Source of the DNA: Planctomycetota bacterium
GTDB taxonomy: Bacteria; Planctomycetota; UBA1135; UBA2386
Length of the DNA: 64,000 nt
Assembly: GCA_046290465.1 (NCBI GenBank)
Contig: JBKAGP010000001.1
Location: forward strand, 3,808,001 to 3,872,000
Direction: 5' to 3'
Shown: positions 3,539 through 10,846 of the stretch, piece after piece
Numbering within the stretch: the stretch's first letter is position 1
Layout: the number at the start of each line of letters is the position of its first letter
Notes under the pieces: model-generated
The model's database searches: none
What the model was told of the DNA's origin: nothing
The model's input: the letters and a program-made list of their open reading frames with translations, nothing else
Position numbers and translations under genes: made by a program

Positions 3539-3766
3539 CGCCCGCATCATCGACGCCAGCCGAGCGACCGATCAAGCGGTGCACGCGCGGCGCTGCTATC
3601 GTGCCCCATGTTCGACCGGGATCCTCGATGCCACCGCAGCGTGCTCGCCACGCTGCGGCTGCTGACCGCCGCCTGCACCCGGGATGCAACGCCCCACCGC
3701 CGACCAGCTCAGCCCGCGCGTTCACTTTCGCGAACCGATCGCTCCCCTCCACGTAGAATGCGCGCC

Positions 3767-4534
3767 ATGATCCGTTCGACCCTTCCGGTGGCCTTCGCGC
3801 TCGCCGCCGCTGCCTGCAGCGGCACCGAGCGCCACCCGCAGGCCGCCGTCGAGACGACGACCCGGAGGCAGATGATGCGACCCGAAACCGACACCCACGT
3901 ACGGCCGGCGATCGACCTCGAAGCGCCCGCCGCGTTCCAGACCGCCACGTTCGCCCTCGGTTGATTCTGGGGACCCGACTCCCGGTTCGGGAGTCTCGAC
4001 GGCGTGCTGCGCACCCGCGTCGGCTACTGCGGCGGCACCACCGACGCGCCGACCTATCGCAAGATCGGCGACCACGCCGAGACCATCCAGATCGACTTCG
4101 ATCCCAAACGCATCAGCTACGACCGGCTGCTCGAGATCTTCTGGACCACGCACAACCCGTGTCGCACCGCGTGGAGCCGTCAGTACATGTCGGCGATCTT
4201 CTACGCCGACGACGCGCAGCGCGACGCGATCGAACGCACGCGCAAGCAGTTCGTCGGTGAGGACAAGGAGGTCCAGACCGAGGTCCAGCGCCTCGAGCGG
4301 TTCTGGATCGCCGAGGACTATCACCAGAAGTACCGGCTGCGGCACGAACCGGAGCTGCTCGACGAGATCCGCGCGATCTACCCGGACGAACGCGACTTCG
4401 TCGACTCGACCGCGGCGGCGCGGCTCAACGGCTACCTCGACGGGCACGGCGGCCGGCGCCAGCTCGACGCCGAGATCGGCAGGCTGGGCCTGACCGAGAA
4501 GGGCCAGCAGCACCTGCGCAAGCTCTGGCGCTGA
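3767..4534 (+). CDS. msrA: Selenocysteine-containing peptide-methionine (S)-S-oxide reductase, predicted lipoprotein
   Basis: ORFs 3020..3964 and 4004..4534 share a frame and join across TGA 3962-3964: TATFALG-[TGA]-FWGPDSRFGSLDGVLRTRVGYCGG...DHAETIQIDFDP...AEDYHQKY. The TGA sits at the catalytic Cys of GCFWG. Lipobox ALAAAAC. Confidence 0.92.
3977..3995 (+). promoter_or_regulatory. Candidate bacterial SECIS element of msrA
   Basis: GACTCCC-GGTTC-GGGAGTC perfect hairpin starting 12 nt after the in-frame TGA. Confidence 0.8.
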
Positions 4535-5317: not shown

Positions 5318-5959
5318 CTACTCCCAGCGCAGCGTCTCGATGAACCCGATCACGCCGCCACAGTTGATCTGGTGGCACTGGATGCAGGCGTTGACCACCG
5401 CGTTGTAGGTCTCCTTGTCGGGCGCCTCGTCGAACGCACGCACGGTCGCGAGGTAGCTCTGGGCGCGGCCGTCGTAGCCTTCGTTGCGCTCCTTGGGGTT
5501 GGTCGGCCACGCGCACCGCATCGTGCGATGCGTCGGGAACAGCTTCTCGACCGACTCGCCGTTCTTGACGCGCAGACGGTTCTCCTTCAGTTGATCGACG
5601 AACCGACGCATCAGCACGGCGAGTTCGCTGTCGCCGTTGGGGTTGCGCGGCGACTCGATCAGGTGCCCAGGCGCACCCGGCTTGTTCGGGTCGAGCACCG
5701 TCTGCAGGTTGCAGTCGGAGTCGTCGTAGGCACCCTGCCCGGACGGGTTGTCTGCGGCCCCTCCCTGCTCGGGCCGATCGGCGCCGGCGGCACCGGTCGG
5801 GTTGTCTCCGGATGGGGCCTGACCGGACGGGGTCTGACCGGATTGGGCCTGACCGGATTGGGCCTGACCGGATTGGGCCTGGCCAGATTGCGTGGGCTCG
5901 TCCGCGGTGCACGCGACGAAGAACAGGGAGAGGAACGACAGCGTCAGGAATCGGGACAC
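5318..5959 (-). CDS. Monoheme c-type cytochrome lipoprotein (class II-like, C-terminal CxxCH)
   Basis: GTG 5959 gives MSRFLTLSFLSLFFVAC (lipobox), low-complexity QSGQA linker, and CIQCH near the C-terminus of a helical domain. Confidence 0.65.
   Translation of the reverse strand: MSRFLTLSFLSLFFVACTADEPTQSGQAQSGQAQSGQAQSGQTPSGQAPSGDNPTGAAGADRPEQGGAADNPSGQGAYDDSDCNLQTVLDPNKPGAPGHLIESPRNPNGDSELAVLMRRFVDQLKENRLRVKNGESVEKLFPTHRTMRCAWPTNPKERNEGYDGRAQSYLATVRAFDEAPDKETYNAVVNACIQCHQINCGGVIGFIETLRWE
5808..5890. repeat. 15-bp tandem repeat, 5+ copies (CCGGATTGGGCCTGA), in frame as QSGQA
   Basis: Period-15 copies at 5808, 5823, 5838, 5853, 5868. Confidence 0.9.
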
Positions 5960-6002
5960 GGCAGTCGCGATGCTGGGCCCCGATCGCTCGCCTTGCAAGC
6001 CG

Positions 6003-6172
6003 CTAGCGGGCAAAGCCCCGTCCGCAAGCGTACACGCCGCTTTCGCGATCACGGTTGGCAGCGCGTCCACTACCTGGACGCGCTCCTAGCGGGCAAAGCC
6101 CCGTCCGCAAGCGTACACGCCGCTTCCGCGATCACGGTTGGCAGCGCGTCCACTACCTGGACGCGCTCCTAG
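6003..6172. repeat. 83-bp direct tandem duplication bounded by CTAG, each unit with a perfect 10-bp hairpin
   Basis: CTAG at 6003, 6086, 6169; units differ at one base; AGCGCGTCCA-CTACC-TGGACGCGCT in each. Confidence 0.92.
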
Positions 6173-10195: not shown

Positions 10196-10846
10196 TCAGC
10201 GCAGCGAACGGATCGCCGCCAGCGTCTCCTCCGGCTCGGGGCGCCGCGTGTAGTCCGGGTCGGCGTCGATCCGGTGGATGCGGCCGCCGGCCGCGACGAC
10301 GATGCGCGTCGACAGCGGCAACTCCCACGAATCGTCGCCGTTGTGGTCCGGCAGCGAGATGCCGGCACCGAGATAGACCTGGCGCAGGTCCTCGGGCAGC
10401 GTGAACACCAGTCCGAGCTGGCGCGCATACGCGTTGCCGGAGTCACGGAGCACGCGGAACGTCAGGCGATGGCGTTGCCGGACCTCGGCGTTCTTCTCGA
10501 TCGACTGCGGTGAGATCGCGACCAGGTCGGCCCCGAGCTTCTGCAACTCGTCGTGAACCTGCTGCAGAGCGTACAGCTCCGCGTTGCAATAGGGTCACCA
10601 GACGCCGCGGTAGAACGTCACGACCAGCGGCCCGTCACCGTGCAGGTCGACGGCTCGCACGGCGTGGCCGTTCGTGTCGGGCAGCTCGAACGGCGGCAAT
10701 GCCGCGCCGGGTCGGGGCAGGCGGTCGAGGATCCCGGAGTCGCGCAGGTCCTGGGTGGCGCGGTTCATGATCGCCTTGGCTTCGGGCGGCGTGCGCTCGG
10801 CCGAGGCCTGCTTGAGACGGTCCAGTCGTTCTTTCAGAGTCGGCAT
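10196..10846 (-). CDS. Selenocysteine-containing AhpC/TSA peroxiredoxin-like protein (UxxC)
   Basis: ORFs 10595..10846 and 10196..10546 are one frame: GPLVVTFYRGVW-[TGA]-PYCNAELYALQQVHDELQKLGADLVAISPQ. The TGA replaces the first Cys of WCPYC. Confidence 0.9.
10564..10582 (-). promoter_or_regulatory. Candidate bacterial SECIS element of the AhpC/TSA gene
   Basis: GCGGAGC-TGTAC-GCTCTGC hairpin (one G-U pair) starting 12 nt after the in-frame TGA. Confidence 0.78.

Follow-up and report, generated by a model that had tools for sequence, protein, structure and literature searches.

Does an msrA reading frame with a TGA codon at its catalytic position encode a working enzyme and, if so, on which side of the membrane does that enzyme act? 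The question is raised by the frame at 3767-4534 (+) of the window (the whole 64,000-nucleotide stretch of DNA that was analysed), which belongs to a Planctomycetota-related genome of 6.59 Mb (one contig, 70% GC, 94% complete). The placement follows from named relatives, one of whose loci (L051) has a translation identical to that of L022, a locus of the same genus. An earlier note on this DNA had proposed that the frame encodes a lipoprotein MsrA with selenocysteine (Sec) in place of the catalytic cysteine. Sec-containing MsrA is an experimentally proven family and stands among the established selenoproteins in a 2026 review; what differs here is a predicted lipoprotein signal, two extra cysteines and a conserved internal ATG. 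The reading that we favour, with a probability of about 0.6, is that of a Sec-MsrA of the Clostridium oremlandii type which would be exported and lipid-anchored, would repair oxidised methionine in the cell envelope, and would also be made in a shorter, cytoplasmic form. The features on which the argument turns are collected in Table 1.

Table 1. Features of the msrA locus; positions are those of the window.
Feature	Position	Strand	Basis
-10-like hexamer TAGAAT, 7 nt before ATG 3767; predicted leaderless mRNA	3754..3759	+	genome-wide spacing
msrA, CoMsrA type, 255 aa with predicted Sec66	3767..4534	+	profiles, PDB match, fold
Predicted lipoprotein signal peptide to Cys17 (codon 3815-3817)	3767..3817	+	pattern and hydropathy
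Linker between lipobox and folded domain, poorly conserved	3818..3901	+	27% median pairwise identity, 19 loci
GGAGG Shine-Dalgarno-like motif, 6 nt before ATG 3875	3864..3868	+	uses rare AGG codon
ATG-ATG (Met36, Met37), putative internal start of a form of about 219 aa with no signal	3872..3877	+	conservation in linkers
In-frame TGA, predicted selenocysteine 66, catalytic position	3962..3964	+	aligns with CoMsrA residue 16
Predicted bacterial SECIS: 8-bp stem, GUU loop, -12.7 kcal/mol	3977..3995	+	loop 20 nt from UGA
Cys88 in GY-C-GG, absent from CoMsrA	4028..4030	+	15/88 loci
Cys132 in HNP-C, absent from CoMsrA; candidate resolving or disulfide cysteine	4160..4162	+	25/88 loci
C-terminal helical domain typical of CoMsrA-type enzymes	4349..4531	+	model, TM to 4LWJ

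An in-frame TGA at the catalytic codon of msrA

The frame contains a single internal TGA, codon 66, in the context ATFALG-U-FWGPDSRFG, and closes with a terminal TGA at 4532-4534. When the internal TGA was read through, the product matched the msrA profile TIGR00401 with 120.6 bits (curated cut-off 108.1) and the Pfam PMSR profile PF01625 with 143.1 (cut-off 23.7). This bears out the claim that the TGA falls exactly at the catalytic C of GCFWG, here LG-U-FWG, with MsrA intact on both sides. Plain ORF calling yielded only a frame that terminates at the TGA and, from GTG 4004 onwards, a piece of 176 aa. The earlier note had expected standard pipelines to call such a gene truncated, and indeed the 34 best database protein matches are pieces of 162-176 aa; the two that were inspected begin past the TGA. 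Two further, longer database proteins have W written at the Sec site. Both the downstream piece and the written W would fit a gene broken by a nonsense mutation or an assembly error, a pseudogene, or a TGA that is read as Trp under another genetic code, and a single change suffices to turn TGC into TGA.

Conservation speaks against such a break. We searched 41 genomes, from the genus, the family and other families of the order, for MsrA of this type and found it in 15. Within the genus 11 of 15 genomes have it, in the remaining genera of the family 4 of 10, and in other families none of 16. All 15 family-level orthologues have one internal stop only, a TGA at the equivalent of codon 66. Against 11 orthologues, dN/dS was 0.16-0.42 downstream of the TGA and 0.04-0.50 over the 20 codons upstream, well below 1 on either flank; the relatives thus show purifying selection and not decay around the TGA. 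Positions 3962-3964 are unchanged in the contigs of four of four runs from four studies, one run being possibly the source of the analysed DNA, and the contigs of the three other runs keep the TGA although they depart from the sequence at 13-19 other positions of the stretch, so that the TGC or TGT which would betray an assembly error did not appear. In a wider collection of 95 loci of this MsrA type (88 unique), the catalytic codon was TGA in 52, TGC or TGT in 36 and nothing else in any, these being the two kinds of homologue for which the earlier note had proposed to look. On a quick tree with 87 rows, TGA loci and Cys loci are mixed among one another, one of the 88 loci having been dropped for length.

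A pseudogene or an assembly error is ruled out by the orthologues, the contigs of the further studies and dN/dS. The Trp code is likewise ruled out: TGA is the commonest stop in our own gene model of the genome (3038 of 4984 genes) and hence not generally reassigned, the tRNA for Sec is the sole one with a TCA anticodon among the 58 listed, and TGG was found at the catalytic codon in none of 111 loci. The absence of selA, selB or selC, which the earlier note had named as fatal to its proposal, was not observed; selA, a full-length selB, selD with its own in-frame TGA and the gene for tRNA-Sec (selC) are all present in the genome. A selA match was obtained in 40 of the 41 genomes, so that a presence/absence contrast is uninformative; the one genome that has a TGA msrA but lacks a selA match (G005) is 81% complete. 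From the machinery and the conservation together, we regard it as almost certain that this is a real selenoprotein gene whose UGA 66 is read as Sec, and a broken gene or another code as a negligible prospect. The recoding call is the correct annotation fix for a clade that the databases hold as fragments of the above size.

Outside this type of MsrA, two msrA genes of the canonical type without the helical domain (L043 and L045, from genomes G039 and G032 of two other families of the order) also have TGA at the catalytic codon (AAG-U-FWGVE). Sec is thus present in both MsrA clades.

A hairpin downstream of the TGA

The hairpin that the earlier note had seen downstream of the TGA is present and reads GACUCCCG-GUU-CGGGAGUC. 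By our own script it satisfies all of the published rules for bacterial SECIS elements, namely a loop of 3-9 nt, a stem of 4-16 bp, a G in the first two loop positions, a spacing of 16-37 nt and an energy of -7.5 kcal/mol or lower (PMC13188914). The stability of this hairpin alone was not significant when compared with dinucleotide shuffles (z -0.5 to +0.3), and comparison with synonymous recodings gave p = 0.056. Since the energy of the single sequence is not significant, the support for a SECIS element comes from conservation across relatives. The median hairpin energy was -9.8 kcal/mol in TGA genes versus -5.0 kcal/mol in Cys genes (p 3e-6), and the pairing codons CC...GGG occur in 49 of 52 TGA genes versus 7 of 36 Cys genes, a motif picked post hoc and counted among kin that are not independent; GGG makes up 10% of the Gly codons in the genome. 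Seven of the 36 Cys genes likewise beat their own shuffles at p < 0.05. Three Cys-coding msrA genes from Dehalococcoidia (L061, L068 and L069) retain a full SECIS-like hairpin, which suggests a recent change from Sec to Cys.

Enzyme type and additional cysteines

The seven best PDB matches of the protein are all C. oremlandii MsrA (CoMsrA), the best with an E-value of 5.5e-55. An AlphaFold model of residues 46-255 (mean pLDDT 97) aligned to the CoMsrA structure 4LWJ with a TM-score of 0.86 over 199 columns at 44% identity; MsrAs that lack the helical domain reached about 0.6. The model has five helices past residue 194; the Pfam match to this C-terminal domain, PF20939, is weak (E 6e-4, 20.0 against a cut-off of 23.7). 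Thus, the likeness to the Sec-MsrA of C. (Alkaliphilus) oremlandii that the earlier note had pointed out holds by sequence as well as by fold and, since the closest structure is CoMsrA with the helical domain included, the enzyme type is known. The active site of CoMsrA comprises Tyr47, Glu55, Gln89, Tyr90, His137 and Tyr140 (PMC4333827). All six are matched here, by Y97, E105, Q139, Y140, H186 and Y189, next to the motif G65-U66-F67-W68-G69. The protein is therefore very likely an intact Sec-MsrA of the C. oremlandii type, its activity being judged from that of CoMsrA.

The two cysteines that CoMsrA lacks occur together in 14 of the 88 loci, and neither is missing from any member of the 13-row clade to which this gene belongs (SH-aLRT 99). 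The 25 loci with Cys132 are all named Planctomycetota records or relatives of this genome. Cys88 and Cys132 may form either a resolving relay or a structural disulfide. With both in its mature chain, the enzyme belongs to the CoMsrA structural subfamily but is not strictly of the 1-Cys type.

The start at 3767 and the predicted export signal

A TAnnnT hexamer 6-10 nt ahead of the start codon is the layout of leaderless mRNAs. In this genome TAnnnT peaks at that distance before predicted ATG starts (4.06% at 6 nt and 2.73% at 7 nt, among 3699 starts), versus at most 0.05% at the same spacing before 25,902 internal ATGs. With TAGAAT placed 7 nt ahead, ATG 3767, and not the overlapping ATG 3758, is the likely start; by start context it outscores 99.9% of internal ATGs. 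The same layout precedes the signal ATG in 7 of 19 MsrA loci. A sigma-70 scan returned no -35/-10 pair, and the one terminator-like site lies upstream on the opposite strand. In about 12% of the 3699 starts genome-wide, TAnnnT stands 6-10 nt upstream, an observation that points to many leaderless mRNAs in this Planctomycetota lineage.

Lipoprotein signal peptides of the SPII kind have a basic n-region, an uncharged h-region and a lipobox Cys at position 15-35. Residues 1-17, with R3, the stretch PVAFALAAAA and C17, are in our judgement a fit to the PROSITE-type lipoprotein pattern; the lipobox -3 residue is Ala, where Leu, Val or Ile is usual. Both lgt and lspA are encoded in the genome. A hydrophobic N-terminal segment was found in 71 of the 88 loci, in TGA genes (44/52) and Cys genes (27/36) alike, so that export tracks the subfamily and not Sec. 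A Cys ends the hydrophobic stretch in 11 of the 15 family-level orthologues (ten by script and one, L026, by eye); the remaining four (L022, L023, L024 and L032) have a hydrophobic signal without a lipobox Cys, and three of them are the nearest on the tree. The predicted targeting is conserved; the lipid anchor is less so.

A purely cytoplasmic Sec-MsrA, made from Met36/37 as CoMsrA is made without a signal, would turn the apparent signal peptide into an untranslated chance reading of GC-rich DNA. It is true that the best Shine-Dalgarno-like motif precedes ATG 3875 and that the genome encodes a signal-less CGFS glutaredoxin, CoMsrA itself being served by glutaredoxin (PMC4479559). However, the hydrophobic segment recurs across the 88 loci, most orthologues end it in Cys, and ATG 3767 combines the -10 spacing of the genome with its high-scoring context. 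We consider this alternative quite improbable and predict that the long form is very probably exported.

The earlier note had taken the lipobox to imply a membrane-tethered, extracytoplasmic enzyme. Export stands, as a prediction from the N-terminal segments; the anchor does not stand as a fixed trait, given the four orthologues without the Cys, and an exclusively extracytoplasmic location had to be amended because the conserved ATG inside the frame points to an additional form in the cytoplasm. Nor is an extracytoplasmic selenoenzyme as unusual as had been supposed: MccSep (PMC13510729) and SaoX and SaoB (bioRxiv 2022.07.06.499078) precede it.

An internal ATG in the linker

GGAGG at a distance of 6 nt, as before ATG 3875, is found at 1.11% of predicted starts versus 0.01% of internal ATGs; the 16S end carries CCUCC, and AGG accounts for 1.8% of the Arg codons in the genome. 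We examined 31 order-level MsrA loci, 19 of which have a script-detected lipobox and fall into two paralogous clades. A linker ATG is present in all 19; among control lipoproteins the figure is 50 of 142 for the linker-like ones and 146 of 335 overall. Exactly one ATG occurs in 17 of the 19 linkers, the next residue is P, T, S or N in 18, and none of nine other residues tested in the MsrA linkers was enriched. In a wider set of 104 unique loci, the linker ATG was seen in 33 of 38 lipobox loci. It was also seen in MsrB (14 of 16; 30 loci), where the linkers are longer than in MsrA. All three Msr genes of this genome (two MsrA, one MsrB) combine a lipobox with a linker ATG, and a signal-less MsrA or MsrB gene was not found in the genome. 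Consequently, unless internal starts are used, the cytoplasm would be left without MsrA or MsrB.

The linker Met could instead be a relic of an ancestral cytoplasmic start, or a sacrificial residue that the enzyme repairs on itself, in an exported Sec-MsrA with a single start and no cytoplasmic isoform. A start-context weight matrix separated the MsrA linker ATGs from those of other lipoproteins (median 4.35 vs -2.0), a contrast that we discount since it proved largely a matter of linker composition under a within-linker control. By that control 13 of 19 MsrA loci lay above the median start context (p 0.012), and MsrB gave no signal (7 of 14). A context so weak favours a single start, as do the occurrence of a Shine-Dalgarno-like motif in just 7 of 38 linkers and the fact that kin are not independent, which overstates the p-value of the linker ATG. 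Yet the ATG persists in linkers that are merely 27% alike and in both paralogous clades, and the genome offers no signal-less Msr gene to take over in the cytoplasm. Moreover, in each of the five lipobox loci without the ATG the linker contains a Val encoded by GTG, which in four cases stands at about the place of the ATG in close kin, although GTG is a common Val codon. We therefore hold a single start to be unlikely, and an internal start at Met36/37 that yields a cytoplasmic isoform to be probable.

The same layout of signal, linker, Shine-Dalgarno-like motif and internal Met is seen in a 271-aa lipoprotein candidate at G000:C1:4939353 (-). Its domain looks pirin-like, which we take as provisional.

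Electron supply and other candidate selenoproteins

Glutaredoxin reduces CoMsrA, whereas thioredoxin does not (PMC4479559), and the signal-less CGFS glutaredoxin of this genome could serve a cytoplasmic form in the same way. As the characterised CoMsrA has no signal and is fed by glutaredoxin, a Sec-MsrA in the envelope must be recycled another way. No MsrP-family match was found in the genome. Its sole DsbD (812 aa; G000:C1:4518361-4520799 (+), locus L134:433-2871) is built from DsbD_N, DsbD_TM and thioredoxin-like domains. Its N-terminal part holds two CxxxxC pairs (four Cys), and in the thioredoxin domain a TGA takes the place of the first Cys of the CxxC, in FN-U-GSC. At this site TGA was found in 25 and TGC in 2 of 27 covered loci from relatives (29 fetched, a set biased to relatives with similar DNA); the hairpin at this TGA reached only -4.2 kcal/mol in our own scan. 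The 2026 review lists a 'thiol:disulfide interchange protein' UxxC family and the DsbD fusion TsoB, so that a Sec-DsbD may already be covered there.

A motif scan of the genome gave 22 candidate Sec sites. Six belong to ResA/TlpA/DsbE-like UxxC proteins, which have TGA at the CxxC and score below the family cut-offs; five of the six have a signal-like N-terminus, as judged by eye. Another falls in a VPGUxxT type 2 protein that bears a signal and whose frame contains two TGAs (G000:C1:4806935-4808008 (-), locus L165; 362.9 bits for NF041383 against 275), in which a thioredoxin-like UxxC domain is fused to an MsrA-like GMS-U-FW domain. The loci L166-L176 make up a large, mostly signal-bearing candidate selenoproteome that includes the ResA/TlpA-like UxxC proteins, two CopZ/MerP-like lipoproteins, an ArsC-related protein above cut-off and a 444-aa W-U-C protein. 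The window itself holds a second likely selenoprotein gene, for a 216-aa protein of the AhpC/TSA family at 10196-10846 (-), with the TGA at 10595-10597 in RGVW-U-PYC; plain calling splits it into two ORFs, its hairpin has -10.5 kcal/mol, and the protein has no signal. The locus adds to a picture in which the uncultured Planctomycetota of this lineage have a large candidate exported selenoproteome that gene callers overlook.

In the neighbourhoods of the family-level loci, msrA is not part of a recognisable operon, no reductant gene is linked to it and the upstream gene is not common to them. Downstream and convergent lie a Vut_1 transporter gene (PF02592; 4637-5314 (-)), which adjoins msrA in 8 of 15 family-level loci, and a gene for a predicted CxxCH lipoprotein with a Q-S-G-Q-A repeat (5318-6070 (-)), which adjoins it in 7 of 15 and has no Pfam match. 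Among 25 longer homologues there was no fusion to thioredoxin: 23 carry MsrB according to precomputed Pfam, P0143 does so too on rescan, and P0123 is a rubrerythrin-like read-through. The only plasmid matches were two distant haloarchaeal ones.

The TGA-bearing DsbD and the six ResA/TlpA-like proteins suggest a selenium-based repair relay in the envelope. The order DsbD, thioredoxin, MsrA is drawn by analogy with the PilB and pneumococcal Etrx systems discussed below, and the reduction of CoMsrA by glutaredoxin instead of thioredoxin counts against recycling by exported thioredoxins. A more far-reaching proposal, which we put forward tentatively and hold to be doubtful, is that an all-selenium envelope chain replaces MsrPQ, with electrons passing from Sec-DsbD to exported Sec-thioredoxins and on to lipid-anchored Sec-MsrA via its two extra Cys, while the same msr genes serve the cytoplasm from internal starts. 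Because the genome names its candidate envelope reductants, the recycling question can be put to the test in vitro.

A proposed course of events

In the reading that we favour, a leaderless mRNA would begin at ATG 3767, as the -10-like motif indicates. SelB and tRNA-Sec, guided by the hairpin, would decode UGA 66 as Sec. The long product would leave the cytoplasm, receive its lipid at Cys17 from Lgt and then be cleaved by LspA; the genes for both enzymes are at hand. Sec66 would then attack methionine-S-sulfoxide with the help of the six conserved active-site residues, as in CoMsrA. For the oxidised Sec, the best candidate for recycling outside the cytoplasm would be one of the ResA/TlpA-like UxxC thioredoxins, itself supplied with electrons by the TGA-bearing DsbD and perhaps acting via Cys132 and Cys88, a step to which we give roughly even odds. 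Initiation at Met36/37 would, with somewhat better prospects, produce the signal-less isoform, which cytoplasmic glutaredoxin or thioredoxin might recycle.

Comparison with known systems

In the main text of the 2026 selenoprotein review the terms signal peptide, lipoprotein, periplasm and Planctomycet do not appear, and among the papers listed by a literature search none dealt with an exported or two-start Sec-MsrA. Sec is combined with export, including lipoprotein signals, in MccSep (PMC13510729), SaoB/SaoX (bioRxiv 10.1101/2022.07.06.499078) and VPGUxxT type 2 proteins (NF041383); none of these is a methionine sulfoxide reductase of the CoMsrA type.

The nearest relative in structure is CoMsrA (PDB 4LWJ-4LWM, 4U66, 7C13, 4W8C; PMC4333827, PMC4479559), which shares GUFWG, the six active-site residues and the C-terminal helical domain. 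That enzyme has 209 aa and no Cys besides Sec, and with its catalytic residue at position 16 it leaves no room for a signal. The protein described here adds the predicted lipoprotein signal, the linker with its conserved internal ATG, Cys88 and Cys132. The hosts also differ, CoMsrA being from a Gram-positive anaerobe.

In its presumed function the system resembles CcdA-Etrx-MsrAB2 of Streptococcus pneumoniae, in which surface MsrAB is fed by thioredoxin lipoproteins, so that methionine-sulfoxide repair at the surface is supplied by thioredoxin-fold lipoproteins (PMC3914529). The pneumococcal system is all Cys-based and belongs to a Gram-positive cell, according to the same source, whereas in this genome the attacking position is encoded by TGA in MsrA, in the candidate thioredoxins and in DsbD alike, and their genes are unlinked.

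In its predicted dual start it resembles PilB of Neisseria, where a single gene gives rise to an exported Msr and, by reinitiation at an internal AUG, to a cytoplasmic one, and where the exported form is linked to DsbD via a thioredoxin-like domain (PMC6210582). PilB relies on Cys, and its MsrA part, of canonical fold, is fused to thioredoxin and MsrB domains (PMC6210582); in contrast, the MsrA of this locus stands alone and is Sec-based, and its second start and its reductant are predictions. Should translation indeed start at the internal ATG, the targeting of one gene's products to two compartments would be a general design of both msrA and msrB in this lineage.
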